A DNA stretch of 63,878 nt from Sphaerodactylus townsendi. Taxonomy: Eukaryota. Position 1 is the first letter of the stretch. Every line of letters starts with the position of its first letter. The notes below the pieces were generated by a model. That model did not search any database. It saw only the letters and a program-made list of their open reading frames with translations, and had not been told where the DNA came from. The DNA is taken from positions 34,348,001 through 34,411,878 of the forward strand of contig NC_059439.1 of the NCBI RefSeq assembly GCF_021028975.2, written 5' to 3'. Positions 19,882-54,383 of the stretch are shown here, piece by piece. The position numbers and the translations under genes are program-made.

Positions 19882-19965
<84 letters not shown>

Positions 19966-22900
19966 ATTCAATATGAAGGAGCTGGGGTTTCCATCTTGAT
20001 AACACTTTCCTGGAGGGAAGCACAGCTGAGTAAAATGAGACTTGCCTCCAGACAGGCCTGTTTTGGATAGCCCCAGGGTCTGCATGCAAGCGTCCACACT
20101 GAATTACTACAAAGATATTCGATAGGTGGCTCTCTTACCTTTGTCATTTGAAATCTTCCCCGGTGGACACGCAAGGCAGTCATAGCAGCAAAAAGGCTTC
20201 CCTTCCTTCTTTCTCCTGCTATAACCAGCAGGGCAATTCTCGTTGCAAACAGAAAGAGGCTGGACCTGGACCCAATGGAAGAGAAACGGATTTGGCAGGG
20301 CCTGACTTCGAGTTAACATTTGGAGTGCAATGGATGGTTGAAAATTCCACAGTTCTATCAGAGCGGCCCATGCAGTAATAGCATTGGGGTGGAAGGACAA
20401 AAAAATCTGGACAATGCAGAAATGGTTGGAATATATATGGGAGCAAACACAATTAGAAATTTTTGACATAATGTCCAGAAACCAAATATGGCAAGAAAAA
20501 CAAAAAGACATGAAGTGGATCTGGACGGAACTCAAAGACTGGCTAAATGAAATTGGAATTACAGAAGAAAACTGGATAAGAAAATTAAAAAGAATGGACC
20601 TGCTGCTGCACATCTAAAGAAGAAAAGAAGAGGGGGGAGGGGAGGGGGGAAAGGGGTAAAAAGATATGGAGGATGAAATATAAGATGTACAATATAAATC
20701 TGTAACAATCCGAAATATCAATAAAAAATTATTTAAAAAAATTCCACAGTTCTTTCAGTTTTACCGCAGCGTCGTGGAATAGGTAGAGTCTGTGGCAGTC
20801 TTGCTGTTTTCAAAGTTCAAGATCAGGCTGATTTTTGATAGTAAGTTTCTAGAGGTGGGTTGAAGGGCAGTTGCATGATCTTTGTGGTCTACAATTCTTC
20901 CAGTTTACCAATAATCTTTCTCGGGGAAATTGTTTATGTGATCTGGATTTTGTGATGGATACTGCAAGTGTCACTGAGCTGGGGCATATCTCTGAGTTTG
21001 GCCCTGCCAACATAGGGAGGCTAAACGGGTGATAGAAGCTGACAAAGGTCAGCTCCATCCCCAGACATAAGAACATAAGAACATAAGAACTAGCTTGCTG
21101 GATCAGACCAGAGTCCATCTAGTCCAGCACTCTGCTACTCGCAGTGGCCCACCAGGTGCCTTTGGGAGCTCACATGCAGGAGGTGGAAGCAATGGCCTTA
21201 AGAACATAAGAACGAGCCTGCTGGATCAGACCAGCGTCCATCTAGTCCAGCACTCTGCTACTCACAGTGGCCCACCAGGTGCCTTTGGGAGCTCACATGC
21301 AGGAGGTGGAAGCAATGGCCTTAAGAACATAAGAACGAGCCTGCTGGATCAGACCAGCGTCCATCTAGTCCAGCACTCTGCTACTCGCAGTGGCCCACCA
21401 GGTGCCTTTGGGAGCTCACATGCAGGAGGTGGAAGCAATGGCCTTAAGAACATAAGAAAGAGCCTGCTGGATCAGACCAGAGTCCATCTAGTCCAGCACT
21501 CTGCTACTCGCAGTGGCCCACCAGGTGCCTTTGGGAGCTCACGTGCAGGAGGTGAAAGCAATGGCCTTAAGAACATAAGAAAGAGCCTGCTGGATCAGAC
21601 CAGAGTCCATCTAGTCCAGCACTCTGCTACTCACAGTGGCCCACCAGGTGCCTTTGGGAGCTCACATGCAGGAGGTGAAAGCAATGGCCTTAAGAACATA
21701 AGAAAGAGCCTGCTGACTGTGACCAGAGTCCATCTTGTCTAGAACTCTGCTACTCACAGTGGCCCACCAGGTGCCTTTGGGAGCTCACGTGCAGGAGGTG
21801 AAAGCAACAGCCCTAAGAACATAAGAACAAGCCAGCTGGATCAGACCAGAGTCCATCTAGTCCAGCTCTCTGCTACTCGCAGTGGGCCCACCAGGTGCCT
21901 TTGGGAGCTCACATGCAGGAGGTGAAAGCAAGGGTCTTAAGAACATAAGAAAGAGCCTGCTGGATCAGACCAGAGTCCATCTAGTCCAGCTCTCTGCTAC
22001 TCGCAGTGGCCCACCAGGTGCCTTTGGGAGCTCCCATGCAGGATGTGAAAGCAAGGGCCTTAAGAACATAAGAACAAGCCTGCTGGATCAGACCAGAGTC
22101 CATCTAGTCCAGCACTCTGCTACTCGCAGTGGCCCACCAGGTGCCTTTGGGAGCTCCCATGCAGGATGTGAAAGCAAGGGCCTTAAGAACATAAGAACGA
22201 GCCTGCTGGATCAGACCAGAGTCCATCTAGTCCAGCACTCTGCTACTCGCAGTGGCCCACCAGGTGCCTTTGGGAGTTCACGTGCAGGAGGTGAAAGCAA
22301 TGGCCTTAAGAACATAAGAAAGAGCCTGCTGGATCAGACCAGAGTCCATCTAGTCCAGAACTCTGCTACTCACAGTGGCCCACCAGGTGCCTTTGGGAGC
22401 TCACATGCAGGAGGTGAAAGCAATGGCCTTAAGAACATAAGAAAGAGCCTGCTGGATCAGACCAGAGTCCATCTTGTCCAGAACTCTGCTACTCACAGTG
22501 GCCCACCAGGTGCCTTTGGGAGCTCACGTGCAGGAGGTGAAAGCAATGGCCTTAAGAACATAAGAACAAGCCTGCTGGATCAGACCAGAGTCCATCTAGT
22601 CCAGCTCTCTGCTACTCGCAGTGGCCCACCAGGTGCCTTTGGGAGCTCCCATGCAGGATGTGAAAGCAAGGGCCTTAAGAACATAAGAACGAGCCTGCTG
22701 GATCAGACCAGAGTCCATCTAGTCCAGCACTCTGCTACTCGCAGTGGCCCACCAGGTGCCTTTGGGAGCTCACGTGCAGGATGTGAAAGCAATGGCCTTC
22801 TGCTGCTGCTGCTCCTGAGACAGTTCCCCTGTCATGTCCCCTGCCATGCCCCCCTCAGTCTGTGGCCGGGTGCTTGCTCAGGGTGGGCCGAGCCAGCCGA

Positions 22901-24815
22901 TGGAGAGCTGTGCACCGTGGCTGGGCATCCCAGGGCTCTGCCGTGGCCGGGCTTTGGCGGGTTTGCTCCTTCCCTGGTATAAGTGCCCTGTAGACAGCAA
23001 AGCCACCGCTGTAAGCCTGCGCCACCTTTATAGAGGGACTCCCCACCCCCCCAATCGTGCTGTCAATTTGTTTTTGTGGTTTCTGTATATTTTATTTTGT
23101 TGTTGTTTGATTGTCAGCCAGGGTGAAGAGTGGCACAAAGAGGGTTTTTTAAGATTACCCCCCTCCCCCATATTTTAACCAATTACGCGAGCCATCTCAA
23201 AGGGTTTTCCAGCATCCTGTTCCATGAAAACACTCAAACCATGATACCATAATATGCGACCTTTTGGTGGAAGCCGGCAAGTGTTGGTCGGCAAAACTAA
23301 ACTTGCTCATCAGGGTAATTTCGAGTCGAGTGGCTCTATTGGCACGTGTGGCCAGGAAAATGAGGTTGAAAACTGACGTTAGCATGTAATGCTATTGTTT
23401 TTAAACTAATTTAATCTATTCTTTAATGCATATATGGATGGTATAGGTTCTTTAAGATGGTATATCAACGATTGGACGACATTGACTACCAAAATGATAA
23501 TGCCTCATTTCCTGCTCTATATAGACCATTGAAATCTGGTAGTGGTACAGTAATGGCCCCCTACATTCAACATATTACCATAGCCAAATACCGATGGGCC
23601 TTTTCTAGAGCACGGTTTGACGCATTTCCATCATCTATGCTTATAGGCAGATTTGGGAAAACCCCTTGGCATTTGAGGAAATGTGTTTGTAATTCTGGGG
23701 ACGTTGATTCTATGATACATATCTTGTTACACTGCATGCTGCATAAGGCAGAAAGAGAGCTCTTTATTTTACCTCTGCTTGTGCAACACAGCTTGATAAT
23801 TGCAAAGGATCCTGACCAAGAGATTAGGAAAATGCTGTTGGAAGACAAGGATGCAACCATCTCCCAGCAGGTAGCAAAGTTCTGTGCACTGGCGTATAAA
23901 AAACGCAAGGGCCTACTTAATCAGGGATGAGCTGAAAGCCAAACATTCATGTAAATGGTTAGCTGTAATAATTGTTGTAATTTGCTGTTGTGGACGTGTG
24001 CTGTTGTTTTGTTTTGTCTTTGCTGGCCTTTTGCCGTATTAAACTATCTATCTATCTATCTATCTATGGTATAGGTTCTGTGTTACTGTAAGACATTGTG
24101 ATGGCCAATGGCCAACAATAAAATCTATCTTACTTATCTTACCTACTCCTCAGGGTATGGCTAACCTTGATATTATTTTTCTGTGCTCCTCCTGTATACC
24201 TGAACATATGTATTTCTAATCCATAGGTGTCAAACTCACGGCCCTCCAGATGTTATGGACTACAGTTCCCATCATGCTGGCAGGGGATGATGGGAACTGT
24301 AGTCCATAACATCTGGAGGGCTACCAGTTTGACACCTGTGTTCTAATCCCTTTCCCCCTGAAGAACCACAAAACATCATGAGAACATGCAGCCAAATACA
24401 CCCTAAAGTATTACAGCTTTCCAAAATGTTCTCAAACTGTATTTAAGGAGAAAATGATTGCTGGAGCAACCCTCACTTAATGAACAGCACGAAAACAGAG
24501 AATCATTTCCATCGATGAATACGTCACTGTTATTTTTAACACTGGAGAAAATTACCTGAACTACCCCAAAGCATATACAAATGCTACCTGGTTGAACACA
24601 GTAGGCCACGCAATGGCTTTGTCATGAATGATGAACTTTCTGTCAGGAGGAGCCTTTGAATCCGTCTTTCCAACTTTGACTCGAAGGAAGGACTGGTTTG
24701 GGAAGGTGACCCAGTTGACAACATCAAATTCGGTGACTAATTCCCCATTTTGGTCAAAGGAAATCTGTTCCCCAGCACTGTTATTGAAGGAAACACTTCT
24801 GAGAAAATGGTGGAG
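16939..24815 (-). CDS. V2R gene C, partial (exons 4-6; exons 1-3 not in the assembled sequence)
   Basis: Exons 24588-24815, 20139-20265, 16939-17840 are open with GT-AG flanks. Upstream sequence ends in a CR1 fragment and an N-gap at 26153. Confidence 0.9.
17985..19215 (-). mobile_element. RTE-X-like LINE fragment split by a SINE and a gap
   Basis: (TATTG)n tail; degenerate ORF pieces at 18101-18286 and 18846-19048. Confidence 0.6.
18561..18833 (-). mobile_element. tRNA-derived SINE (Squam3-like)
   Basis: Reverse complement of the 60946 family. Confidence 0.8.
19385..19967 (+). mobile_element. L2-like LINE 3' end with a (TAAA)n tail
   Basis: [15 protein letters not shown] motif; microsatellite 19887-19967. 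Confidence 0.7.
20139..20265 (-). CDS. V2R gene C exon 5
   Basis: 127 bp [14 protein letters not shown]...CCYDCLACP. Confidence 0.92.
20357..20740 (+). mobile_element. L1-like 3' end
   Basis: IALGWK..WT..KW ORF2 tail, G-rich UTR, A-rich end, TSD AAAATTCCACAGTTCT. Confidence 0.8.
21066..22817 (-). repeat. Tandem array of about 14 x 123 bp CR1 3'-terminal units
   Basis: Unit taagaacataagaa...gcaatggcct matches the 3' end and (TTCTTATG)n tail of CR1 copies at 12776 and 26030-26152. Confidence 0.95.
23451..24065 (+). mobile_element. RTE-X-like LINE 3' end
   Basis: ORF 23457-23930 with CVC...HILLHC zinc knuckle, (CTAT)n tail, TSD ATGGTATAGGTTCT. Confidence 0.8.
24222..24340. mobile_element. Palindromic hAT MITE
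   Basis: Whole element folds back; TSD TTCTAATC. Confidence 0.88.
24588..24815 (-). CDS. V2R gene C exon 4
   Basis: 228 bp [20 protein letters not shown]...WPTVFNQ. Confidence 0.92.
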
Positions 24816-24863
24816 CTGCATGGGGTGAAAGCGGTATACCAGTTTATTAGGATGAATACAGTA

Positions 24864-26791: not shown

Positions 26792-27071
26792 TCTGAAAGC
26801 TCCCTTGCGTTCCCTCCCCTGGGAAAGGGAAGGACAGGGCTTTTAGCTGGCTGCTCCGGGTCTCTGAAAGCCCTCTCACTCTGCCTCCTCTGGGAGAGGG
26901 AAGGATGGGGCTCATAGCAACTCAGAGCAGATCAAACTGGAGCAAACCGGCTGAATCCCAACACTGGTCTAAGTGTATATCTATCTGCCTTAATCTATGT
27001 GGAAACCCAGAACTGATGCCAGTTCTCTATAGGTATCACCAGAAACTCAATGAAGTTTCTAGGGTTTCCTA

Positions 27072-27212
27072 GGCCCCTTCCGCACACGCAAAATAATGCG
27101 TTTTCAAACCACTTTCACAACTGTTTGCAAGTGGATTTTGCCATTCCGCACAGCTTCAAAGAGCACTGAAAGCAGTTTGAAAGTGCATTACTCTGCATGT
27201 GCGGAATGAGCC
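27072..27212. mobile_element. 141-bp family MITE
   Basis: CTA/TTA flanks. Confidence 0.85.
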
Positions 27213-27259
27213 TTAGAGAGGCGTAATGTAACTTCAGAACTCTCCCAAAAAGTGACATC

Positions 27260-27800
27260 ACACCATAGATCTGGCAGCCATTTTTATTTTATTCTTCTTT
27301 TGTTGTCATTAAGAGCTGGGAACAGGAGATTCCCCGTCCTTGTGGCAGACTGGCAACAATGCAGTAAGATTACTTGCTTCAGTTCAGTGTATTACTCCAG
27401 GATCTGTCCATTGGGAGTTCACAGAAGCAGGGAGCTGTTTCCTTGGACTTTGTAAATCCCCAGGCATTATGGCAGCATTGTACAAGAAAATAATATAATG
27501 TTAACATCGGTTTGAGGGAAATGACATCATAATGCTTTTTTTCTGAAATACGTTGGGGCTGATTACTATCATCCTTTCAATCATCAAATTAACCACAATT
27601 ACTTCCATGTCTATTCCAATTCCCTAGAGAGAATCAGCAGCCATTAGTAAAAGACTGAAGGAAACTATTAATAGTCCCCTCCATGTAATTCAGAGCAGGG
27701 GCAAGGGACAGAGAAGAATTCATCAAGCTCAGCCCTGACATTGGGATATACAAATGTACAATCAAAATGCCCGACCATTCAAACAGTATAGTCAGAGACA
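27260..27800 (+). promoter_or_regulatory. Putative V2R promoter/5'UTR block shared by genes A, B and D
   Basis: Homologous to about 930-1320 and 13955-14490; shared TCCCCAGGCA and TGACATCATAATG motifs. Confidence 0.4.
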
Positions 27801-27801
27801 C

Positions 27802-28076
27802 ATGGAAACTTTGTCTGAACAGCTAAACTTGTTTCCAGAACTAATTTTTTCACTCAAGACGGTGTTGTTTCTGGTGGTTGAATTTGCATTAATGCCTCTG
27901 GCAATGTGTAAGGTTCCTCTTAGTAAATGCCCCATCAGGGATCCACTTCCTATTGTTCACAAATACTATAAATCAGGGGATCTCATCATTGCTGCCATTC
28001 TGTCTCAGATCTACATTGCTATCGATCCAATCATGTTCGAAAAATGTCCCTCTGAGGAACTGTTTGCTGACCTTTC
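27802..28076 (+). CDS. V2R gene D exon 1
   Basis: METLSEQL...[13 protein letters not shown] donor. Confidence 0.85.
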
Positions 28077-31000
28077 GTAAGAAAATGCCCATTTTCATCC
28101 CCTTGTGCAAGTAGATTTGAGTGAGATTCAGGACGCTGGAAAATGGTTGGCACATAGTTCTGTTCTTGCTTTTCATTCTTGATTTCAAAATTCAAATGTT
28201 GTTGGGATCTGTTCTTCTCTTTCCGTGTTATGTTGCAGTTAAGTCTATTATGTTGGCCATTTTGAAGATTTGTTTAGCAGAATTATGACTGGTCAGCCCT
28301 CCTTGATTCTGCCAAGAGATATTCTGCATTCCAATCTACTGGTGGAGGAGCACGTATGTAGTTGGGAAATATTTTAATCTGACTGCCCTGAATGTGTATT
28401 GAGTGTCCTTTCTTTTTGCTTCTTTGTTGGTTCAAATTCCGATGGTCCCTGGGAAGGTATTTACTTATTACTTAGAGCATTTTTATGTCTTCTTTTTTGG
28501 GGGAAAGAATATTCTTCATCTGGTTGTGGTGGGTTTTCCAGGCTGTGTGGCCGTGGTCTGGTGGATCTTTCTCCTAATGCTTTGCCTGCGTCTGTGGCTG
28601 ACATCTTCAGAGGTATAGCACAGCAAGAAGTCTGTTACACACTGTGTCAAGAGAGAAGGGATTAGACACAGTCTGTAACAGACTTCCTTCTGTGATACAC
28701 CTCTGAAGATGTCAGCCACAGATGCAGGCGAAACGTTAGGAACAAGATCCACTGGACCATGGCCACGCAGCCCGGAAAACCCACCACAACCAGTTGAAAC
28801 CATCCGTGAAAGCCTTTGACAATATTCTTCATATCTACAGAGCTGTAAGATATTGCAAGGTCTATTTTCTCAAATGCAACTCTTCACATTCTGCAGATAT
28901 TGTCTTTCTGGCGTCTCAGATATAGTGAGGGGTTGATAGCAGCTACGTTGGGTTGCAATCAGACAGAAGAAGATTTCATTTTCTGCTTGAAGTCATCTGC
29001 TCTCATTGCAGGTTCCTGACTCACAACTACCAGCACATCCTAGCCTTGGATTTTGCTGTGAAGCAGATCAATGAAAATCCTCAGCTCTTACCCAACATCA
29101 CTCTGGGCTTTGACATCTACAACAGCCATTTCGATCCAAGCAAGACCTATCTTGCCTCAATGGAACTTCTCTCCACACAGGGCAGGTTCATCCCCAACTA
29201 CAAGTCTGCTGCCAAGAACCGTCCCATCGCGGTCATCACAGGACCTCACACTGACCTCTGTCTCTATGCGGCAACCATTCTGTGCACCTACAAGATCCCA
29301 CAGGTATGGTATAACCATGGAGAATGAACCATTAGCAAGCACTTTTTCTGGCCATTTAAATATGTTTTGCAGACAAGGAAAAGCATCATTGCAAGGTTAG
29401 GTAGAGCTCATATGTAGCTGAAAGGTTGTACACAGAACATAATTAGTTACATGCCTCTGTATTTATGTAATCAAACGATTCAGAGTGAATCCTTTTGTGT
29501 ATGTACCCATGATATAAGAATGTAGAGCTTGTGTACCTCATCTTGGCCTCCATTAATACAAAAAGTGAATTTAGTTGGCAGGTCAAATGATAGGTTCAAT
29601 AAAGTGTTATGGAAGCCGCGTAAACACGAATAGTAGTTTTGAAATCTCTCCCCCGCTACTCTGTCACTAGATCTCATACGGCTCTGCACCAAGGTCAGAC
29701 AACAAAATGCAAGCTGTTTTCTTCAACCAAATGTTCCCGAGACAGACTCACCAAAATATAGCGATTCTCCAACTTCTGTTGTATTTCAAGTGGACATGGA
29801 TTGGAATTATTTCTCTGCCTGATGAGGCAGGAGAAAGATTTGTACAGGACATGGTTCCTATGCTATCTCAGAATGGCATCTGCGTGGACTTCATAGCCAT
29901 AATGCCAGAAGTAGCTTTTTCCAGTGAAGTTGCTGAGGGAATGGCTGAGGCGGTTGAAAAGTATAAAGTTGTCATGGGAAGCACTGCCACAGTTTTGGTC
30001 CTCCATGGGGAAATTCACACCATGATTCTTTTAAGATTGTTCCTCCGATTCCCAGATACTATGGATATACCATTCAATGCAACCGGTAAACTCTGGGTTA
30101 TGACAGCTCAGATGGACTTCACCTCTCTACCCTTTCAAAGAAACTTCGACATCAGTTCTATCCATGGTGCCATATCCTTCGCAGTTCACTCAGTGGAGCT
30201 CTCAGGATTCCAGGAATTTATTCAGGAGAGAAAGATTAACTCTGAGGAAAAAGATGGCTTCATCAGACTCTTCTGGCAACTGGCTTTTCTTTGTTCATTC
30301 ACTGACTCCACAGCAGTCCAAGAGGATGGTGAAATCTGTACTGGAGAGGAGAAACTGAAGGACCTTCCTGGATCTGTTTTTGAAACCATCACAACTGCCC
30401 ACAGCTACAGCCTCTACAATGGAGTTTATGCTCTGGCACATGCTTTGCGAGATTGGCAGTTCTCCGGTTTCAGACACAGAGTAACCGCACACGGCAGGCA
30501 ATGGAATCTTCTGGATCAAGAGGGGTGGCAGGTGACATACCTTTATATATATATCCCACCCTATCCCCACATTCTAACCATACTCACTTATTTGTTAACT
30601 GGATTTGTTACCTAAAACATTTGTACCTGCTTTCCACAAGGAACTTATGATAGCTAACAAACAAACCACTGCAGGCACAACGTACCAAAAAATGAATTCT
30701 GGCCTTTTCAATCGCTGTAAAATATCCTGAATACATTTCATACAGGAAATTTCTGCATTCATATTTCCATTAACCTCCAAGAAGAGCTATTGGAATAGCT
30801 ATGCTAAAGGGAGGAAGTGAATGTGTTACCATGGTATCTCTGGAATGAACTAACTTCCCGAGAAAAGGCAGAGGAATAACAAACCTCTCTGAGGATTGGA
30901 GTAGTGAGTTTGTATGTTTAGCGGTAGTTAAAGTTTCCAAGTCATTTTAATGGCAATCCCAATTAAAATCCCATTTCAGTAAACCGTATCATAAGTTACA

Positions 31001-34000
31001 GCGGCTGGGAGTGGTGCATCTAATTCAACAGAATAATAGTGGGGGAAATATGATTTATATGAAAAAGAAGATGGCTCCATCAGGGACTTCTGGAAACAGT
31101 GGCTCCTTCCGCACATGCAGAATAATGCACTTTCAAACTGCCTTCAGTGCTCTTTTAAGCCTTGCAGAATAGCAAAATCCAATTGCAAACTGTTGTGAAA
31201 GTGGTTTGAAAACACGTTATTTTGCATGTGCGGAAGGGGCCAAAGTTTCGGTGTACCTTCTCCAACTCCACAGTTGACACGAATGGAGAAATGAGTACTG
31301 GAGAGGAGAAGTTGGAAGGTCTTCCGGGATCTGTTTTTGAAACAATCACAACTGTCCACAACCACAAACATACATATTACATACATCAGCCTTAATTGGC
31401 ATAAGATACACAGAAAAGAAATCAATAGACAAACCAGTCTGCCAGACATGTGGAAAGAGGAAAGAGTCCGCCACACATATGGAGGAGTGGGGAATCAAAC
31501 CCAGTTCTCCAGATTAGAGTCCACCTGCTCCTGTTCAGTACACCACACATGTTCTCACTGGTATGGTGACATATTAAATTTTGTAAGTCTTGCCATTGTG
31601 CACCTGAACATAGATTTAAGGAAAACAATAGCAACAGTTCTCTCGTTTGGCAATGCATCATCCCATTTCATATTTGCATATCTTGTGTATCTGTATGAAC
31701 TGGTGTTTTGCTTTTTGTCTGCCTTTAGCTCCACCACTTCCTGAGAAGTGTCTCCTTCAACAACAGCGCTGGGGAAAGCATTTCCTTCGACGCAAATGGG
31801 GAACTAGTAACCAACTTGGATATTGTCAACTGGGTCACCTTCCCAAATCAGTCCTTTCTTCGAGTCAAAGTGGGAAAGGCCGACTCAACGGCTCTTCCCG
31901 AAAAAATGTTCATCGTTAATGGCAAGGCCATTGCATGGCCCGCTATGTTCAACCAGGTAGGATTTTTAAATGTTCTAGGACATAGGTGTCAAACTCGCGG
32001 CCCTCCAGATGTTATGGACTACAGTTCCCATCACCAGCTGGCAGGGGATGGACTACAGTTCCCATCACCAGCTGGCAGGGGATGATGGGAACTGTAGTCC
32101 ATAACATCTGGCAGGGTCATGAGTTTGACACCTGTGTTCTAGGATATCTCGAGTAACTCTCCCAGTGTTGAAACAGGAATAAAATATTCCCATATTATTA
32201 TTTTTTTCTCTGTGTTCCTCTGCTGATGAGGTGATGAACAGTTAAAACAATCACTTTCTTCTAAAACAGTTGTTAGGAAAAGCTTTGGCCCCTTCCGCAC
32301 ACACAAAATAATGCGCTTTCAAACCACTTTCACAACTGTTTGCAAGTGGATTTTGCCATTCCGCACAGCTTCAAAAAGAGCACCGAAAGCAGTTTGAAAG
32401 TGCATTATTCTGCATGTGCGGAATGAGCCTTTGAAAAAACGGTTCGCTGTATTCTGGGTGATGGCATTAACGTCCTTTGTGTTCCTTCCAAGCAGAAGAC
32501 ATTAGAAATAAATATATATTCAGATAAATAGAAGGAGCAGGGAAAAGAAATACAAAGCATAGTAGTATCCTCACGGAAAGGCAGGGAAGAACTGGTTCTC
32601 ATGCCCCACTTTTCTCTGCCATAAGGAGCCTCAAAGCAGCTAAGAATTGGTCTTGCCTTCCCTTCTCTTCCACAAGGCTTAAGTCCATAAAGCCCAATGG
32701 GGGATTTCCAGCAGTTGGGGAGGTTTGTTTGCAATTTTAGCCTCCCCACCCCACTGGAAAATCTCCTTGGGAGTGGCAGGCTGGTGCAGCCATGGCGTCA
32801 GATCTGGATGCCTGATCGTTGGATGGCGCTGTGAACTGTTAAACATAAGGCAGAAATATATCCACCACATCAACTTTGCAAATTTCAGTTCTTGCTTGGG
32901 CCCTTATCTTTGGCTCCTTCCGCACATGCAGAATAATACACTTTCAAACTGCTTTCAGTGCTCTTTGAAGCTGTGCGGAATGGCAAAATCCACTTGCAAA
33001 CAGTGGTGAAAGTGGTTTGAAAATGCATTATTTTGCGTGTGCGGAAGGGGCCTTTGATTTTGCTGACTTGACTGGCATGGGATCTCAGCCTCGAGAGACT
33101 CCATTGCAGATGCGGTAGCTGTGGGCAGCTGTGATTGTTTCAAAAACAGATCCAGGACGTTCCCTCAGTTTCTCCTCTCCAGTACAGATTTCTCCATCCC
33201 TCTGGAATGTTGTGGAGTTTGAGAATGAATAAAAAGAAGCCTGTCTCCACAATAGTCTGATGAAGCCATCTTTTTCTTCAGAGTTAAGCTTTCTCTCCTG
33301 AATAAATGTCTGGAATCCTGAGAGCTCTACTGAGTGAACTGTGAAGGATATGGCACCATGAATAGAACTGATGTCCCAGCTTCTTTCAAAGGGTAGAGAG
33401 GTGAAATCCATCTGGGCTGTCATAGGCCGTTTCCCCACTTTGGTCGTTTCCCCTTTGCTGTGCACTACTCTCAGCGCACGTCATTTCTGGCGCGCGTCCG
33501 GGCTTCCCCAGAGCGCGGGGTCATCAAAAGGCGCCATTTTGAAGAGCGCCAGGAATGACGCGCGCGGAGGGGGCGCGAGAGTGGCAGCGTCGGGGCGGCT
33601 GCGTTGTCGCTGCCCCTGTAGTGGGGAGTGCCGCTGGACCCTGCGCTATTTGGGGAGAGTAGCGCGCAGCAGAAGGTAAGTGGGGAAAGGCCCTCAATCC
33701 ACAGTTCAGCTGTTGCATTTAGTGGTGTATCCTCAATTTCTGGGAATCGGAGGAACAGTTTAAAAAGTATCATGGTGTGAATTTCCCCATGTAGGACCAA
33801 AACTGTGGCACTGCTTCCCATGACAACTTTGTACTTTTTAACCACCTCAGCCATTCCCTCAGCAACTTCACTGAAAAATGTTACTTTGGGCATTATGGCT
33901 ACGAAGTCCATGCAGGTGTCATTCTGAGATAGCATAGGAACCGTGTCTTGTACACATCTGTCTCCTGTCTCATCAGGCAGAGAAATCATCCCAATCCACG

Positions 34001-36626
34001 TCCACTTGAAATACAACAGAAGGTTATCGTCTCGAATAAAAAACTACAAAAGTTTCAATTCTCCATTGCACTAGAAATGTTCTGTTGAAGTTGTACTGCC
34101 ATGCCATGCCAACCCATTCTAACTGCAATTACACCAAGAATATATACATTTGGAAAAGCATATGAAACTGTGTGGGTTTAATATGTATCTTTCATTTGGG
34201 CCAGGTGCAGCCCCTTTCTGTTTGCAATGAATACTGTCGTTCTGGTTACAGCAAGAGAAAGATCGAAGGCAGACCTTTTTGCTGTTATGATTGTCTTCCG
34301 TGTCCATCAGGAAAGATTTCAAGTGAGAAGGGTAAGAGATTCAAGTATCAGATATGTACATTCAGAGGTGGGATCCAGCAGGTTCTCACCAGTTCTCGAG
34401 AGTGGGTTACTAATTATTTGTGTGTGCCGAGAGGGGGTTACTAATTGGGTCTGCTTTTCTGTTAGAAATTCCATTAGGTCCAAAAATCATAAAGTCCTGT
34501 TGTTTCCTATGTGGCTGGTTAGCGAAGGTAGAAAACGGGATAATTCTCCCTGTTGGGCTGTTTTAAAAACATGTTTTAGAAATATGGTCAAGTTCCTTGT
34601 TTAAGGAAAGTATCCTTCTTTTGTTTTCTAGAAACAAAATTAAGTAATTGAAAGTATTAAGTATTTGACAGGCAGTCAATTAGAGGAGAAGTAGTTGTGT
34701 CTGTTGGCAGTAGACGATAGGACTTGCTATAATGAGTTTAAATTATGGACAGAAAGATACCAGCTGGAAATTAGGAACTTTTTTTTTACAGTAAGAGTTT
34801 TTTACAGTAACAGAGAAATTATTAATGCCCCACCCCCAGAATGCCCAGCCACGCCCCCGTCGTGCCCTGCCCAGCCCCATTGGCGCTACGCCACTGTTTG
34901 AATCCCACCACCATGGGAACCTGTTACTAAAATTTTTGGATCCCACCACTGTGTACATTGTATGTCAGTATGTACAACGGCATATAGGCACTTGAAACAA
35001 TCCAAAGCATGTCTATCCGGAAGCAAATTCCACTCTTTCTGAAATGAAATGGTGAGAATGGTCCTGTAGACATGAATTTAATATTTTGCACAACCCAGGA
35101 GTTAATCTTCCAGAAGGTAACCTGTCTACGTAAATTTAGTGAGACCGAAGTGGGCCACAGAAGGTCTCTTCAGTGGCTTTAGTTCAACTGACAAAGTACA
35201 TGGGACCCGAAAGAATATATTTGTTTAGTCTCTGCTTTATCAAAGGTATTCTTCTTGATTCCATGGTGTTTATTGGAAAAGGAAACAATATTTGATATGC
35301 ATAGATATGCAAGTGCTCTTACAGATCGTGGTCAGTTGACTGAGACAAAAAGAAGCAAGAAAGGCATAGGCACACATGCTGGGGGCACCAATCCAGTTTG
35401 GTACAATCTCCAAAACTCTGGGGTGCTTTGCAGGTGCCACTGAGCCTAATCTTGTCCTCGTATTATTAAAGACAAAGTGAGAAAGCTTAGTGGTTAAGAG
35501 CAGGTGCACTGTAATCTGGAGAACCGGGTTTGATTCCCCACTCTGCCACTTGAGCTGTAAAGGCTTCTCTGGTGAACCAGATTAGCCTGTGCACTCCCAC
35601 ACACGCCAGCTGGGTGACCTTGAGCTAGTCACAGATCTTCAATTGAGCAGCACTTCAATTGAGCAGCATTTCTTGAATACTTGGTCATATTAGTATCAGC
35701 TTGCCATTGCATTTTCATTTCCAGACATGAATGAATGTTTTGAGTGTCCTGAAGGTCAGTATCCAAACAAAGGCCAGAATTCATGTCTACCGAAAGAGAT
35801 CAGCTTTTTATCTTATGGAGAACCTTGGGGGATCAGCCTGGCCGCTATCGCTCTTTCCTTCTCTTTCATCACAGCTGTGGTGCTCGGGATCTTTATTAAG
35901 CACCGGGAAACTCCCATAGTCAAAGCCAACAACCGGGACCTCACCTACACTCTCCTCATCTCCCTCCTCTTGTCTTTCCTTTGTGCTTTGCTTTTCATTG
36001 GGCAGCCTGAGAAGTGGACCTGTCTCCTTCGACAAACGGCTTTCGGCATCATCTTCTCAGTGGCTGTTTCTTGTGTATTAGCCAAAACAGTCATTGTGGT
36101 TCTGGCTTTCATGGCCACAAAGCCAGGATCCAGAATGAGGAGATGGCTGGGGGAAAAGTTGTCCAGTTCCATTGTCCTTGCATGTTCCCTTTTCCAAGCT
36201 ACTATATGTACCGTGTGGTTAGCAACATGTCCCCCCTTCCCTGGTTTTGACATGCACTCAATGACGGAGACAATTGTGCAGGAATGTAAGGAGGGCTCAG
36301 TCACCATGTTTTACTTTCTCCTGAGCTTTCTTGGCTTCCTGGCCCTTATCAGCTTCACTGTGGCTTTCTTAGCCAGGAAGTTACCAGACAGTTTCAACGA
36401 AGCCAAGTTCATCACCTTCAGCATGTTGGTCTTTTGTAGTGTGTGGGTCTCCTTTGTTCCAACCTACTTGAGCACCAAGGGGAAATCCATGGTGGCTGTG
36501 GAGATCTTCTCCATCTTAACCTCCAGTGCTGGATTACTGACCTGCATCTTCTTCCCAAAATGCTACATCATTATAGTAAGACCTGAGATGAACAAAAGAG
36601 GACAGTTGATAAAAACAAAGACTTAG
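27802..36626 (+). CDS. V2R gene D, complete (894 aa)
   Basis: Exons 27802-28076, 29012-29303, 29671-30531, 31729-31956, 34205-34331, 35725-36626. Same sizes and phases as gene B, GT-AG throughout, no stops. Confidence 0.93.
28520..28820. mobile_element. Penelope-like element remnant (inverted pseudo-LTRs) in gene D intron 1
   Basis: About 120-bp inverted arms, flanked by an AATATTCTTCAT duplication; absent in genes A and B. Confidence 0.8.
28700..28740 (+). ncRNA. Minimal type I hammerhead ribozyme-like motif
   Basis: CCT-CTGAAGA-(stem II)-GAAA-C-GTT-AGG inside the Penelope repeat. Confidence 0.55.
29012..29303 (+). CDS. V2R gene D exon 2
   Basis: 292 bp [10 protein letters not shown]...YKIPQ. 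Confidence 0.93.
29671..30531 (+). CDS. V2R gene D exon 3
   Basis: 861 bp ISYGSAP...EGWQ. Confidence 0.94.
31062..31367 (+). pseudogene. Degenerate V2R exon-3 fragment in gene D intron 3
   Basis: [12 protein letters not shown] [MITE] CTFSNST...[18 protein letters not shown]. Confidence 0.8.
31101..31241. mobile_element. 141-bp family MITE
   Basis: Interrupts the exon-3 fragment. Confidence 0.85.
31729..31956 (+). CDS. V2R gene D exon 4
   Basis: 228 bp [10 protein letters not shown]...MFNQ. Confidence 0.93.
31981..32136. mobile_element. Palindromic hAT MITE
   Basis: TSD TTCTAGGA; internal duplication. Confidence 0.88.
32287..32429. mobile_element. 141-bp family MITE
   Basis: TTT TSD; single TTT at the empty site in gene B. 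Confidence 0.88.
32912..33052. mobile_element. 141-bp family MITE
   Basis: TTT TSD; empty site in gene B near 7120. Confidence 0.88.
33099..34021 (-). pseudogene. Inverted partial V2R exon-3 copy inside gene D intron 4
   Basis: [10 protein letters not shown]...[15 protein letters not shown] on the minus strand, split by an insertion at 33425-33693. Absent from the homologous intron of gene B. Confidence 0.92.
33425..33693. mobile_element. GC-rich Harbinger-like MITE
   Basis: TIR ggccgtttccccactt / aagtggggaaaggccc; splits the inverted exon copy. Confidence 0.78.
34205..34331 (+). CDS. V2R gene D exon 5
   Basis: 127 bp cysteine-rich exon. Confidence 0.93.
34363..34951. mobile_element. Non-autonomous hAT element (589 bp)
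   Basis: Same family; perfect 8-bp TSD TGTACATT. Confidence 0.9.
35725..36626 (+). CDS. V2R gene D exon 6 (7TM)
   Basis: 299-aa 7TM ORF. Confidence 0.95.
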
Positions 36627-36751
36627 ATTGTATTATACAAACACCGGGATACATTGTATTATATTCAACTGTGCTGGGACTGGTGGGCCTATGTCTTCTT
36701 CTGGGCCGATTGTTTCTTCATTACAATGTGTACTTTGTGTGAGCTGTGCAT

Positions 36752-37498
36752 TTGCTGCTTGAGGGAAGTAACTAAAAGCCCTCCTAGCCATTCCAGGAAT
36801 AAATGAGAGTACAACATGCTTTTGTGCGGAGAAAAGTTGGCCATAGCCATTTTATTAACAAAAATTGGTTCAAGGTAAACAAAGCGTAAGGCGCAGCATG
36901 GGGGTCTGAGCTGTGTACTGGGCAGCCCGAGTGCTGTCCCCCAGACACCTACATTTTTCTACAGCACGCCTGCTGATGAAAAATTATCACACGCCGGAGC
37001 AGCTGTGAGATTCCAGATGGGCAGTTGCCACTTCCTGAAGACTCTTTGCTGCCAGGGGTGCAAGCCATAGAAGCCCATGTCTGGGCAGGTTACCCCTTGG
37101 CTTGCTCCACCCCAAACCTCATAAGGAGGTTCCAATAAAGCGGGTATTTCACCCGCTGAGCCCAAGCTAAAGCTCAGTCCCCCATGCACAATCCGCCAAC
37201 CCTCTAACAAAACAGGCCTGCATTAACATAAGGCCAAAACAGGGAGAGGTGGGCGGGAAACAAGTGTGCTCAGGCAAAATGGGGGAGGTTGCAGACCAGG
37301 CCTGGTCTTATGTAGACTGCCTAGGCCCACCTCCCCACTGACGTCAGGGCACCCAGCGTCACTGCTCGGCACCCTTAAACCCAAAAACTCATGAGCACTT
37401 GGGAGCTCGCGAGGTCACGGGGGAAGGCAGCAGCCACGAAGGAGGCTGTCCCTTCCGCAACAGCAATGGCGGCCGTGGTCAGTCGCGGCCGCTCTTTT
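36752..37498 (-). mobile_element. About 0.75-kb solo repeat, same family as 1322-2129
   Basis: Insertion relative to the gene C 3' flank (gcatttcatctggg). Confidence 0.6.
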
Positions 37499-37810
37499 AG
37501 TCTGGGAATGAGCGAGCACATTCATAGCTGGGTTTCCTGAACTGGTCAATTGTCCATTCAGTTTGGGTTTAAAGTGTCCACAATCTTCTTGAAAATCCTT
37601 GTTTGGCCATTTCTTAAATGTTAACTAACTTTGAATAGGAGGAGCAAGGAATACTTCTTGCTTGTGTCTGTAATGTTGGCTGTTTCTGGATTTTTAATGA
37701 GTGTAATGGTACCAGATGTTCAGATTGTATCAATGGTTGTATAATAAATTATTAGAACCCCTTGGAAATAAATGCATTTGTCAGTCCAAAACAGATTTCA
37801 AATTGCTTTC

Positions 37811-38136
37811 TGTAAAGGATTCAATGGTGTTGATGATCGGGACAGCCGCCTGGCCTTGACTGCATTCCATAACCCGGGCGATGGGCCAGCATCTGCGGCG
37901 GAGACTCTGGCGGAGACCTTATCTCTGCGAGAGAGTTGAGAACTCCGTTCCCATGGGAATCCGGGAGGGGGGATGGGATGGACAGAGTTATAACCTGTGC
38001 TTCTGGCGGGAGACTTTATTCCTGCCGCCCACGTGCGTTAATGTACGTGAGGCTTTTCTAGGATGTCTGTGAATAACTTCGGTCTTTTTACACCAAAATA
38101 GCACTTTTATTTCTGCTTCTATGGGAATTCCTTACA
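37811..38136 (+). repeat. 5' LTR
   Basis: Direct repeat of 44138-44444. Confidence 0.95.
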
Positions 38137-41100
38137 TTGCTGGCAGGAATCCTAGTTACATCCCTATCTTCCCAGTGCGAAAGCGGACCCTCTGGTGTTT
38201 TACGGCATGGAGAGGAGTTGAATATTCCTACCAATCTGCAATGGAACGGAAGATGCGGTAGCCCCAAAGAGAGGCTCCGAAGCTTTCCCTTCTGGATTTG
38301 GAGGAACCGGCGGGAGAACGGGTCTCGCTGGTAACTCTTTCCCGATCCTCGTATCTGTACCACGGAGTCTTCCCTTACTCTGTTGGGGCCGAGGGCGAAG
38401 AGACGATCATATGGACTTGCGCATGAGTGCGTTTGGGCGCTGTCTATAGGATCGAGCGCCTGTGGATCGGATATCTGCCCGTTTCCGTGTAGTTACAAAC
38501 CTCAGATGCAACCTGTAACGGAGGAGACGGGCCTGACCACCTTTCATGCGGCAACACCAGGAGGTCCATTGAGCGATTCCTGGACTAAATATTTTGGTGA
38601 TGCTCCCAAGAATCCCACGCAATGGCATAGCACTGGGGCCCGTCCTAAGACCACCCGTTAGAAACCGGGACTATATCGGGGATTGGGAGAGGTATCCGTT
38701 ACCAGCTTCTGATCGGACCCCAGATCCCGGATCAGCAGCTGCACCTGAGGCACCCCGTGGAGACGCCTAGCGGTGGAACCACGAGGTGCTGCATTTTGAT
38801 GAAGAGGAATCCGAGAGAAAGCCTGCCTTCCCATCGGCGGATCTATTCCCCTCCCGTCAAAAGGCTGGGATGAGGAAGTGGGCCAACTCACGAGATGCCC
38901 AGGAAGCATGGAGCCCGTGAGCGCCAGCTATGGGAAGAGGAGCGGGAGCAGCTGCGACAAACAAGCGTGAAAACCTGCAAAAGACCACGGGAACAGCGAA
39001 GCGCCAAAGAAATCCAACTTCGAATTGGACCCGTGCCAAAGGCTTGGCTGCAACGGCAATATATGCAGAGATCTATCAGTCCATGATAAGGTCCTGGAAC
39101 ACTCCAAACTGGACTTAGGAAGAAACGTCAGCGGCGAAAGCGTTAAGAGCCATCGCGTCGCATAAAGTGAACTAACTGCAGCTATTCCAGCGGGGCGAAC
39201 TGGCCAAACTGGAGCGAGAGAAAGCAGCTTTGCATCGCATACCAGGATACGCCATTGACTCTTAAGGAAAGGAGACTTAGCAGCCTTGGAAAAGGAGCTG
39301 AAGAAGCGGCAGGACAAAGATGCCCCAAAGTTGGAGTCTCACGGCTGTCACTGGCTTTAACAGCCAACAGCGCCAGAGAGGCGACGTTGCTGGGACCTGC
39401 TACTTGCGTATCTGCCACCTTCAAGACCTGCTCCCCAGGGCAGCCAGCGGCGCTGGCGTTGGTGCCCCACACCTCCACCGATTCCGGCCCTCCCTGCGCC
39501 GCTGCCTCAACCTCGCGCTTACGCGCCGCTAGCGGTAGCCAAAGGGGAGCGATGGAGAGAGGATATTACAGACCTCAATACCTGCCCGTTTACGATGGGA
39601 CGCTTCCAAACTCCCCTACTTCATCCTACAACTCGATGCCCACTTATGGAGGGGACTATATTGGCGATTTGTACCCGGTCTGAGCAGCGAAAAAAATCAC
39701 GGGACATCGGTTCCGTCTTAGATGGAAAAGCGGCAGCCGACTGGTTCGTGACTCTTTTGATCTGCAAAGGGGAGGATACTCGCATGGTGCCTCGCGTTCC
39801 TCCAAGCCTTAAAGGGCTTTCGCTTCAAAGATCCAGAAGGTGCTTTGAAAAATGAAGCCATCTGCACCATCAAATCTATTCAACAAGGCAACGGCTCCTT
39901 TGCGAATTGCCCGTAATGAATTTACGTCGCTTGGCGGCTGCTTCGACTCCCTCCTGAGTGGCCTGAGCACATGGAAATGTGAGATACTTCACCGGATGCC
40001 GTCGGCGGCAATGACTGCGTGAAAGCGGTGTTCCTTATTCGGATCCCCGCACTATTGCTGGAATTGGATCGAATTAGGATCTCGAAGTGGCGTCGTCGTT
40101 TGGATTACGCTCGTGCCAGGGGGCATACGCCCAAAACCACGCTACGACAGCACGCTTCGACTCACAAGCCAGAAGCCCAGCAGCCTCTGCGAAACCACCT
40201 CCGGCGTCGTCGCCGTCTGGGATTAATGTCTTTACTCGCGGAGGACCGGGTCATCCTAGCTGCCAACTGCCGAAAAAACAGAAGCCAACCGCTCCGGCCG
40301 CGCGCATCCCCATCTGCCAAGCCACCACGCAAATCCGGGCCGCCCCCCAACTGGTTCGTCTAAGGCGGTAACGAAAGCGACCCAGAAGAGGGAACGCAGC
40401 TGTTTTGACTCTCTTCAGCCCCCATGGATATGGGTTACGACTCCAGATCACGATTACGGTAGAAGGCGAAGCGCTCCCCATTCACGATTCAAGCGTTTCT
40501 GGCCAACCCCGCTAAAGCACACTTTCGTATTATAGCCTCCCAGCCCTTGCTTGTAAGATTCTGGGTGCTCCCCATTGTTTAATCTTTTGGTAGCCCCATT
40601 TGGGTGGCCGGAGGAACTTGGAACTAGAACCGAATCCCCTGGCTAAGCCCATACCCGTTCACCCAAATGGGCGGCAGCCCTCTCAGGGCGAAGGACCGGC
40701 CCAGTTCAAAGCGCATGCCGGTCCTCCTCAGCTGCGCTGACCATTTAGGGAGAAAATTAGATTTTATTCTGGCTGCCCGGTAATGAAACCTCCATAGTCT
40801 TGGGCATGCCACCATAGGTTGTTGTTGCATGAACCAAAATTCATTTGGGGAAAGAAGCCTCCGGATCTTAGAGATTCCACTGAGAGGCCACTCCCTGCAA
40901 GGAGAACACATGAATTAGGGAAAACTCACCTCCTAATGACATACCCTGAGAAGCTCCAGGTCAGCGGTGCACGCATCCAATTGCTCCGAGAGCTACCGGC
41001 ATTCCACCCCGGCTTCACCAAAGATTTAGCCAAGGGGTATTTCAGGAACAAGAATGCAATCAATTGCCACCCCATAGGAACACTGAGCTGCAAAATCATT

Positions 41101-44100
41101 ATTACAGCCATGGGGCTCAACTGCCCAAGGGATAGAATCTACGCATGAGTCCCCAATGAGGGAGAAGGAACTTACGTTGCCTTCTTAGACAAGAACCTTA
41201 TGCTTTCGTGGGTTCATGCGTGAGCTACCAAATACACACATGCTGCTCCTGTATTATTTGTTAAAAAAAAAGGAGGCCGGGTCTTTAAGGCTCTGCATGT
41301 GGATTACCGAGGACTCAATCGCGGTTTCCCTGTCAATAAATACCCTTTGCCATTAATCAAAAAGGACCTTTTGGATGCATTGGGCAAGGGACGAATTTTT
41401 TACTAAGTTGGACTTAAAGAGAAGCTTATTACAGGGTCAGGATTCGCGAGGAAGGCTATGAACATTTGACTGCATTTAACACAAAATTTGGACAAGTATG
41501 AATACTTAATAATGCCATTAGGGTTAGAAGTGGGGCCCCGGAGCTTTTATATGGCCCATATCAACGAAGTTCTACATGATTTATTATACCAAAGGGAGTA
41601 GTGGTAATAGCTTAGATGATGTTTTAATTTATTCACAAACCATGGAAGAGCATAGAAGCCTTGGTTGGGAAGTATTGATAAGCGGCTTGCTCAACAACTC
41701 CCTCTTTGCCAAACTTTCTAAATGTTGTTTCCACCAAACCTCTACTCGACTATTTTGGGTTGCGGATCTCTTCAAAGGGGCTAAAATGGATCCTGCTAAG
41801 ATTGAAGCTTAGTCCTCCAATGGCCTGCCCCTACCAATCGGAAGGAACTCCAATCTTTCCTAGGGTTTGCTAATTTCTATCGTGACTTTATACCCCAATT
41901 CGGCTGAACTGACTCTCCCCACTCACAGACCTCTTGCAGCACTAAGGGTAAAAGATCCACACAGGCTGCCAAGCCCGGGGCCCCCCTTTCCTGGTCTAAA
42001 GAATGTCAGACAGCCTTTCAACTTTTAAAATCAGCTTTTACTACCGGAACCTATCCTAAAACACCCTGACCCAGATCTTCCGTTTGTGGTTCAGCGTGGA
42101 TGCCTCGGACAAAGCTTGGTGCAGCCTATTTGCAGAGAAATAAAGATGATAGGCTGGTTCCGTGTGCTTATTTATCAAAGAAATTCTCGGTGCTGAGCTC
42201 AACTGGACTAGTAGGGATGCAAAGAGACTTCGCGGCCATCAAAGTAGCACTCCTTCCACTTGGCTGTATGCACTGGCTGGAGGGCTCGCTATACACCCCT
42301 TTCAAGTTTGAGTGGGATCACAAGAACTTGGCAGCGCCCTTTTCCACCCTCAAGATGTCCATAAAACAACTCCGTTGGGCCGATTTCTTTTTCTCGTTTC
42401 GTCTTTCACTGTCCATTTTTTCCCGGGAAAAAACCAATAAACTGGCTGCACAATGCGGCTCTGCAGCCTGCCCGGGGAGGGTGGAGCTGCCTTACGGGAT
42501 ATCCCGCGCACTGTTCTCTCCCCTCCCAATTTGGGGCTGTGGCTGTCACTTTCGATCTCAGGCGTCCTCCTCCTTCTCCACCCATTTCCCAGCCACTGGT
42601 CTCTCGCTTTCCTCACGAGAACTTCGAGGAGGCGGGGCTGCTTATGAGCCATGGCAGCCGGAGGAGAAGGTGACTCCCAATTAAGCCTGGAGAATGGTGT
42701 TGTTGGCTTATGAGAGGATTGTTGAGTACGATGCCTCCCCTCCGTAAGCAGGTTCACCGAGGCCTGTCCTTGATGCCATTTCGGCTGGACATTTTTTGAA
42801 AGCTTCAGAAAAACTCTGCATTTGGCCCGCCGTCAATTTTGGTGGCCAGCTTAGCGATCATAAAGAGACATTGAGACATATGTCAAAAGGTTGCTCTGTT
42901 TGTGCGGAAGCCAAATCCGTTCAGGGAAAACCCCATGGTCTGTTGAAGCCTCTTCCGGTGGCCTCCCGCCCCTGGGAGGTCATCTCCATGGATTTTATTA
43001 CGGATTTGCCAGGAAAGTCAGGCTTAACCGCGGTCTTGTGGGTGGTGGTGGACTTATTTTCTAAACTAGCCGGTATTTCATCCCATGATAGCTTCCATCC
43101 CCTCCGCTCCTAAGTTAGTAGCGTCTGTTCATTTCAGCATATTATTGCTCGTCTACACTCCGCCCCCGTTAAAGGTGGTCTCGACGCGCTTGGAGCCCCA
43201 ATGAATTCATTTCAAAGAGTTCTGAAACTTTTCACTGGGCTTGTTGAGGGGCCGCCCGGCGAATTGCAGCCCCTACCGCGTTCAAAGTGACCGGGTGGAG
43301 CCGAGGAGAGAGCAAGACAAGAACCCTGGAGCGAAGTATTTACGTTGTTACACCAACTATCACGCAAGACAATTGAAGTGCGAGTTAATTCCGTTTGCAG
43401 AATACGCCTATAATAATCGCGGTTCATATGAGTACAAAAAAAACCCCGCTTCGAAATTGTGTCACAATGAATTGATCCAGCTTCCCTCCGTTGCGCAACT
43501 ACCTGCGGAAGGCGTTGAATCCTCCGGAGTTCCAACAGTGGATTTCATCTGGCCGAGGGGTGGAAAGCGGTCCAGACCGCCTTACAGCAGAGCTAAAGAC
43601 TCCCAAAAACTTCAAGCCCGGATAAGCACATACACGGATTTCCCGCTTCGTGTAGCAGGCCTGGGTGTATATTGTCTACCAAAAATCTCCAGAGATGTGC
43701 ATAAATTTTCCAAAAGAACTGGGCAAAAGATTCGTGGGACCTTTTACAAGATTACTAAAGTGATTAATGATGTCACTGCCGATTGGACTTTGCCTGAATT
43801 CTCTAAGTAATAGCCATCCTGTCTTCCATTCCAGTTTGCCCAAGGAGGCCCCCGTTCCCGATGCCTGGCACGACCGGCCGGAGAGACCCCCGCCCGGAAG
43901 GCTATAATTGATGGCCTTTAAGCATTCACCGAAATTGGCGCCATCCCTGGACTCTACGTTTTTTAATGCAAAGCGGCTTGCAATGGCTTTAGTCTCTTGG
44001 AATTTGGGATATTCCTCTGGGTATAATCAATGGGTTTATTCCGAGAAATATTGGCGCCCCTGCCCTCATTTCTGCTTTCCATCGCACCTTTCCGCACAAA

Positions 44101-44137
44101 CCTGGGGGGGGAGAAGTCTTTCTTAAGGGAGGCAGAG

Positions 44138-44444
44138 TGTAAAGGATTCAATGGTGTTGATGATCGGGACAGCCGCCTGGCCTTGACTGCATTCCATAAC
44201 CCGGGCGATGGGCCAGCATCTGCGGCGGAGACTCTGGCGGAGACCTTATCTCTGCGAGAGAGTTGAGAACTCCGTTCCCATGGGAATCTGGGAGGGGGGA
44301 TGGGATGGACAGAGTTATAACCTGTGCTTCTGGCGGGAGACTTTATTCCTGCCACGTCGTGTACATGAGCTTTCTAGGATGTCTGAATAAACGGTCTTTT
44401 ACACCAAAAAGCCTTTTATTTCTGCTTCTATGGAATTCCTTACA
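44138..44444 (+). repeat. 3' LTR
   Basis: Direct repeat of 37811-38136. Confidence 0.95.
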
Positions 44445-53817: not shown

Positions 53818-54256
53818 GGGGGGAAAGGATGTATCTTCTGGGGTTAATTTTTGTGTGCATGTATGGTACTTTTTTTTGAGTGCTTTCTTTCTGTGACATT
53901 TTCTTTGTGGGGCATACTGTTCCTTTCAGCAGGGCTTCCAGCAGGATGCAGGTTTTGAAGCAATCTTTCCCGAGCCTGAGAAGGTTGACTGGAACTGGAA
54001 ACCATGAAAACCTAAATCAGCAACCTGTCTTTGTCAATACTGCCTGTTAGAAACTTAATCTGTTTTATGTTTGTTACTTCATCAGACCATTCGGTTGTTT
54101 CCAATAAATTATTCTTGTTCATTTCTTTGAAAACTGTTCAGAAGCTTCTGGTGCCTAATTATTTCCAAAGTCTGTGCCCCCCCCCCCATGTGGTATGAAG
54201 CTGGATGACCTGGATCACACAAAGTATTCTTCAAAATTATGTACATCATAACTTAC

Positions 54257-54383
54257 CCTTCTTATCTGAAATCTTCCCTTCTGGACATGGAAGGCAGTCA
54301 TGGCAACAAAATGGCTTCCCCTCCTTTCTTCTCCTACTATTACTGGGGTGACAGTTGTCGTTGCACTGAGAAAGAGGTTGTGT
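54257..54383 (-). pseudogene. Orphan V2R exon 5
   Basis: 127 bp TQPLSQCNDNCHPS...[18 protein letters not shown] with cag acceptor and GTAAGT donor; no partner exons seen. Confidence 0.87.

Follow-up and report, generated by a model that had tools for sequence, protein, structure and literature searches.

The window, the whole 63,878-nt stretch of Sphaerodactylus townsendi DNA analysed here, carries on its plus strand a six-exon gene (gene D) whose exons have AG/GT borders and join into an open frame of 894 codons. This gene encodes an ANF_receptor ectodomain in exon 3, a Cys-rich linker and a 7tm_3 domain in exon 6. The domain scan covered ANF_receptor and 7tm_3, and the Cys-rich exon 5 was recognised in translation. 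On the basis of this six-exon family C GPCR architecture we take gene D to be a V2R gene, so that the preliminary description of the host as an intact V2R gene holds. Its protein look-alikes are chordate, and an expansion of V2Rs is described for squamates in PMC3590772. Private changes in gene D number 15 synonymous and 26 non-synonymous, compared with 11-25 and 25-41 in its paralogs; judged by these counts, the gene resembles its paralogs and shows no apparent relaxation of selection. The features of gene D and its introns are as follows, with window coordinates unless otherwise given.

27802..28076, plus strand: gene D exon 1 (putative start codon; in-frame ATG also at 27754)
29012..29303, plus strand: gene D exon 2 (AG/GT borders, open frame)
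29671..30531, plus strand: gene D exon 3 (ANF_receptor, PF01094, E 1.8e-19)
29773..30425, plus strand: part of gene D exon 3 complementary to the insert (ligand-binding ANF_receptor domain)
31061-31366, plus strand: decayed same-strand exon-3 fragment in gene D intron 3 (pieces 31061-31129 and 31246-31366)
G000:C15:34276695, 34288045 and 34345664: the decayed fragment in introns 3 of paralogs Y, Z and A
31729..31956, plus strand: gene D exon 4 (within the predicted loop)
33098..33424, minus strand: left arm of the insert, antisense exon 3 positions ~428-754 (88.4% to gene D 30099-30425; left junction bridged in run X6)
33425..33693, no strand: MITE splitting the insert (269 nt, terminal inverted repeats, 3-bp target duplications in its family)
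33696..34022, minus strand: right arm of the insert, antisense exon 3 positions ~102-428 (88.4% to gene D 29773-30099; right junction bridged in runs X3, X5 and X6)
34023..34070, plus strand: resumed host intron with TCTCGA (34030) and CTCCATTGCA (34061), aligned to paralogs Y, Z, A and B
34205..34331, plus strand: gene D exon 5 (Cys-rich; 183 nt downstream of the insert)
35725..36626, plus strand: gene D exon 6 (7tm_3, PF00003, E 1.2e-85)

An exon-3 copy in antisense orientation within intron 4

Self-comparison of the window revealed 654 nt of V2R exon 3 lying antisense in intron 4 of gene D (33098-34022), in two arms of 327 nt that are each 88.4% complementary to gene D exon 3 (E about 2e-117) and together cover exon positions 102-754. 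The preliminary description had placed about 650 nt of antisense exon 3 some 2.6 kb downstream of the exon itself, bracketing exon 4; both points are borne out, with an inner gap between exon 3 and the insert of 2672 nt and exon 4 inside it. An addition to that description is the 269-nt MITE between the arms, presumably of the PIF/Harbinger type. With the element itself excluded, 40 of 40 scored candidates matched it at 86-93%, that is, at least 40 of the 6759 first-look candidates in the genome, and target duplications of 3 bp were present at most of the 19 other copies viewed but were degenerate (ATA/TCA) at the insert. Pfam assigned no family to either arm (108 aa each), and Rfam returned none at the gathering score over 27000-38000. 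Introns 3 and 4 of gene D also contain a 142-nt MITE in three copies of alternating orientation (31100-31241, 32287-32429 and 32911-33052; 89-94% alike), which form ordinary inverted pairs, one of them also bracketing exon 4.

Six close copies of exon 3 are present in the genome, belonging to genes Y, Z, X, A, B and D. The first five lie on the minus strand at C15:34.27-34.36 Mb and gene D is the only plus-strand member. The insert is absent from Y, Z, X, A and B, gene X having no intron 4. In exon 1 of this subfamily the hydrophobic stretch starts without an ATG (window 27754-27892), and the ATG at 27802 is aligned in D, Y, Z, A and B, with ACG at that site in X. Gene X is a half gene (G000:C15:34333936-34337403, minus strand) of exons 1-3, with exon 3 still open, and a second half gene, C (window 16940-24816, minus strand), retains exons 4-6 only and adjoins the inverted gene D. 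In intron 4 of half gene C a 123-nt unit is repeated in tandem about 14 times (window 21063-22819); single copies of this unit, within a dispersed repeat, lie at 12784 and 26028. Just downstream of gene D lies a 6.6-kb element (window 37811-44444) with 326-nt direct repeats that are 93% alike, TGT...ACA ends and a 5-bp target duplication, which from its ends looks like an LTR element. Further along, a lone antisense V2R exon 5 with its AG/GT borders kept (window 54258-54383, minus strand) lies about 440 nt past the stop of a plus-strand gene ending near 53818, and is only about 70-77% alike to nearby exon 5 copies.

The insert is rare among the V2R genes surveyed. The survey spanned 1.06 Mb in four clusters, part of the repertoire, and yielded 57 complete copies of exon 3 along with 48 genes in which exons 3-6 follow in order. 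Counted over the exon 3-6 span by translated search, by which badly decayed pieces are missed, one of the 48 genes (gene D) has a piece of exon in antisense orientation between exons 3 and 6, and six have same-strand exon-3 pieces in intron 3. A decayed 3' exon-3 fragment in same-strand orientation, at about 75-77% identity, is common to intron 3 of D, Y, Z and A and therefore represents an older exon-3 copying event that preceded the insert. Similar 93-nt pieces occur in two genes at C15:24.167 and 24.187 Mb and in one at C7:112991475.

Contigs from four of the 14 public runs listed were compared with 29600-34400, X1 and X2, one of which may derive from the sample behind the assembly, being left aside; the four were X3 (organism A, sample S2), X4 (organism B), X5 (organism C) and X6 (organism D), the contigs that bridge the junctions coming from two studies. 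Contig-piece and indel tables were used, whilst joint and substitution tables, swamped by repeats, were set aside. The right junction is bridged in X3 (33984-34214, 0 differences), X5 (33961-34214, 12 differences) and X6 (33696-34240, 30 differences), and the left junction by an X6 contig (record 29, 33051-33316); the pieces shown for X4 cover the inner insert only and bridge neither junction. In favour of an assembly artefact, the locus is a tandem gene cluster and no single contig among the listed pieces of X3-X6 crosses the entire stretch, but since the junctions are bridged by contigs of three organisms on the right and one on the left, assembly error does not explain the insert, which is moreover 12% diverged from its nearest relative, and we give this explanation next to no weight. 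The insert is real, old and shared between species, being kept in three or four organisms that are up to about 5% apart. Because the match of the right-arm X6 contig breaks off precisely at 33696, 39 letters before the contig ends, the inner 269-nt MITE is probably absent from organism D; the last of the 142-nt MITE copies, at 32907-33050, is absent from that organism.

Junctions, donor and age of the insert

An uninterrupted intron 4 is kept in paralogs Y, Z, A and B, and in gene D the host intron continues on both sides of the insert. Counted by eye from the alignments, about 65 nt of intron were lost relative to Y and Z and about 35 nt relative to B, in agreement with the earlier statement that the insert replaced a short intron stretch still present in gene B. 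The same description drew attention to TCGAGA and TCTCGA at the junctions and to CTCCATTGCA at the left end and just right of the insert. These motifs are present (TCGAGA at 33091, TCTCGA at 34030, CTCCATTGCA at 33099 and 34061), but for both hexamers and the right CTCCATTGCA the paralogs have aligned counterparts in their old intron, apart from minor differences suggestive of CpG decay; these three motifs therefore predate the insertion rather than mark it. The left CTCCATTGCA is exon-3 sequence. We likewise rejected the hexamers as transposon ends or as a nuclease mark, as they are host-intron letters in the paralogs.

At the left junction, gene D tracks the old intron as far as GAGAC and then enters the antisense exon, with AC shared between the two (ACT in the state of gene A). 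At the right junction, the antisense exon ends in CAGAAG, followed by GTT and then by ATCGTCTCGAATAAAA, which aligns to the old intron (ATCATCTTGAATAAAA in gene A). The old intron contains GAAGGTT about 10 nt past the left break, which from the alignment may have been the point of return, with the deletion following afterwards. Microhomology at these old junctions amounts to 2-4 nt (AC/ACT on the left, GAAG or TT on the right) and may be a matter of chance. No target duplication, poly(A) or terminal repeat was seen at the insert's own ends. The insert thus displays the features of a templated inverted insertion: a reverse-complement copy, a return near the point of departure, a small loss, and neither target duplication nor poly(A). 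Priming at CTCCATTGCA is a less parsimonious route; the C in the insert matches the intron and not the paralog exons, as would suit such priming, but the route requires a duplication and two later deletions.

Over 637 nt, the insert is 88.4% identical to exon 3 of D, 87.0% to Z, 86.8% to A, 86.7% to Y and 85.2% to both X and B, and these six local subfamily exons are the only ones above 85%. The best tree, built from the insert and the six paralog exons without an outgroup (support 22-89), groups the insert with D, and AU tests reject none of the six as sister. Sites that the insert shares with one paralog only include 4 of 13 private D changes, 3 of 24 in Y and 1 of 27 in X. Half gene C, in which exon 3 is missing, was considered as donor and is judged improbable, given that exons 4 and 5, which it retains, resemble those of D at only 83% and 80%. 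Private divergence of the insert is 36-37 of 637 nt, or about 6%, against pairwise intron divergence of 8-16% in the subfamily and 12-16% for D (6-8% per lineage), and the insertion therefore likely occurred early on the branch leading to D.

The insert had been described as a mosaic of D-like (AEGMAE..KYKV) and B-like (ERSWDIS) sequence. The quoted peptide motifs are present, but a D/B mosaic origin is rejected: the ERSWDIS bases are common to Y, A and B, and the insert retains that state within exon positions 403-574, where D and Z, although 88 kb apart and on opposite strands, share 172 identical nt (permutation p=0.0001), compared with shared identical runs of 81-124 nt in other paralog pairs. 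The mosaic look is thus the result of later gene conversion between D and Z. This tract indicates that conversion is active in the cluster, as would be needed for the insert to act as a silent conversion donor for exon 3, a role that had been suggested for it. That suggestion fails, however, in the identical-run test, which found no conversion tract between the insert and D: the two are identical over 29 nt at most, the mean under the null being 39, and the longest identical run to any paralog is 44 nt (A). As the insert also has many changes at near-invariant residues, we see only a very slim chance that it serves as a donor.

We consider that the insert is an old template-switch insertion that has drifted neutrally since, with a probability of roughly three in four. 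According to this proposal, DNA synthesis, during replication or repair, would have departed from intron 4 near 33097 and switched to an opposite-strand exon-3 template through 2-3 nt of microhomology, the template most likely being D's own exon 2.7 kb upstream, with no candidate sister rejected by the AU tests. Once 654 nt had been copied, synthesis would have resumed on the intron, with about 65 nt lost on balance. The event would have taken place early on D's lineage; later, a MITE would have split the copy and D exon 3 would have been partly overwritten from, or into, paralog Z. For as long as intron 4 is present, the pre-mRNA would contain a long imperfect duplex, and any resulting editing or mis-splicing would be tolerated as a side effect rather than kept up as a device.

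Sequence change since insertion

Changes within the insert were examined for signs that the copy has been maintained. Among its private changes, 8 of 36 are synonymous, close to the neutral expectation of 27% (p=0.71); for the six paralog exons the figure is 40 of 107 (p=0.11). Ten changes fall at residues kept in 44-49 of 49 exon-3 proteins (by exon nt position: F169C, I208T, K417E, F602L, F616S, C622Y, L694R, T723A, S738R and Y745C). Transitions that keep G-U pairing are not enriched, at 13 keeping and 9 pair-breaking (p=0.52). Counting against neutral drift, the insert has no stop codon and, in comparison with the paralogs, no indel besides the MITE, although some 3 would be expected (P(0) about 0.05); between organisms, indels within it were found at 33270 (organism C) and 33913 (organism D). 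In organism D, 44 of 806 nt differ in insert-containing contigs, some 265 of these nt belonging to flank and exon 5, versus 35 of 772 in introns (p=0.42). In organism C, with pieces 31505-31670 and 33961-34214 excluded as possibly paralogous or mixed, 13 of 464 insert nt differ versus 29 of 687 intron nt (p=0.26), the insert being nominally less diverged. Also against drift, changes of D within the complementary arm of exon 3 remove an A in 6 of 9 cases, compared with 36 of 94 in the paralogs (p=0.15, post hoc). In these tests, which at 36 changes are low-powered, we found no upkeep of pairing by selection, and the insert appears to have drifted without selection since insertion.

Predicted duplex and its possible consequences

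As had been proposed, D pre-mRNA is predicted to form a long duplex, the minimum-energy fold of 29671-34204 containing 302 and 298 pairs between exon 3 and the two arms of the insert. The arm duplexes have energies of -524 and -510 kcal/mol, versus -208 and -244 for the ordinary inverted MITE pairs in the same introns; these energies are set by complementarity alone and carry no shuffle baseline. The duplex stops 102 and 106 nt short of the splice sites of exon 3 and thus masks neither, and 157 of the 176 adenosines in the exon arm are paired in the fold. The insert thereby has the arrangement of an editing-complementary sequence, being an intronic complement predicted to pair with an exon.

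Compatible with a template switch followed by neutral drift is the possibility that the duplex acts as an incidental ADAR substrate, in the manner of inverted Alu pairs, so that exon 3 would undergo promiscuous, unselected A-to-I editing in vomeronasal neurons. The roughly 600 predicted pairs and the large share of paired adenosines are consistent with such editing, as is the account in PMC526178, in which editing of inverted repeats is set by distance and homology and all repeat types are possible targets; Alu pairs are also described as able to induce nearby editing (PMC4053975). According to PMC526178, however, editing of inverted Alus peaks at a spacing of 300-400 nt and falls with distance and divergence, which makes editing across the 2.7-kb loop plausible rather than assured. 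The duplex would, moreover, exist only until intron 4 is removed, and gene D is intact although broad recoding would likely be harmful. We therefore hold this reading tentatively, with the odds somewhat against it.

A stronger proposal is that selection has favoured the insert as an editing-complementary sequence or a splice regulator, by which the ligand-binding domain of D would be recoded or tuned. The geometry resembles that of GluR-B, whose exonic editing sites are set by an intronic complement that also couples them to splicing (PMC1920255), and the insert is both rare (one in 48 genes) and kept in several organisms. The lack of enrichment for pair-keeping changes, the absence of a conversion tract, the intron-like divergence and the tolerance of indels and a MITE all speak against selection, and the proposal seems improbable. 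In a related scenario the locus would be a self-made editing guide, in which a backward exon copy gives a 600-bp duplex and ADAR recoding then yields a spectrum of receptor variants; this model we regard as quite unlikely. If true, it would represent an editing-complementary sequence caught at birth and a means of chemoreceptor diversification at the RNA level. In a literature search that covered few subscription journals, we found no paper on vomeronasal receptor editing or on editing guides born by backward exon copying, and no direct precedent for an inverted exon copy in a V2R gene.

The insert might instead be a source of cryptic splicing, supplying a poison exon or an early exon-5 acceptor in some transcripts. 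Reversal of a purine-rich exon creates pyrimidine tracts, and candidate acceptors at 33282 (9.4), 33289 (9.6) and 33977 (10.7) score close to or above the real exon-5 acceptor (9.9), whilst the MITE supplies a candidate donor, AAG/GTAAGT after 33675 (10.5); use of the acceptor at 33977 would lead to a stop at codon 11. These scores come from a crude matrix of 160 acceptors and 162 donors, under which ordinary intron positions reach 8.6, and D remains intact, so this outcome is predicted to be unlikely. Finally, by analogy with mouse Au76/Rangap1, the duplex could generate endo-siRNAs against the subfamily. Perfect 21-mers, counted in 597 windows, number 27 for D, 56 for A, 49 for Y, 41 for Z, 23 for B and 22 for X, and Au76 is given as about 90% identical to its target in PMC6223193. 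The same source links the efficient processing of long dsRNA by mammals to a Dicer isoform of the oocyte, and the duplex here needs a retained intron and would therefore likely be nuclear and brief, which renders this analogy highly improbable.

Taken as a neutral relic, the insert offers a well-bracketed case of exon pieces being scattered within tandem V2R clusters, and preserves exon states that D itself later lost. The locus also constitutes a natural experiment, as a long complement to its own coding exon is present in one of six subfamily members and absent from the other five.

The editing complements of GluR-B/GRIA2 are short and conserved. They share with the insert the pairing of an exon by a downstream intronic complement (PMC1920255), but are site-selective, whereas the insert is long and without measurable upkeep. 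Alu-pair ADAR substrates, as described in PMC526178 and PMC4053975, likewise combine arms of about 300 nt, 10-15% diverged, within one pre-mRNA; in gene D, by contrast, a protein-coding exon supplies one of the arms of a predicted duplex, around a loop of 2.7 kb. With the Au76/Rangap1 endo-siRNA loci of PMC6223193, the insert has in common a dead copy, about 90% identical, that can form long dsRNA, but here the copy is intronic, lies in cis, belongs to a vomeronasal-type gene and is not known to give rise to small RNA. A parallel in mechanism is the template switch described in PMC5453318, in which, as here, part of the host sequence gives way to a fragment copied in reverse complement from nearby, and a new inverted repeat results. 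The four-point model of that study (Loytynoja & Goldman 2017) is short-range, and we reject a short-range switch for the insert, a 654-nt fragment of coding-exon template from 2.7 kb or more away; for events of longer range, the same source cites the FoSTeS/MMBIR class.
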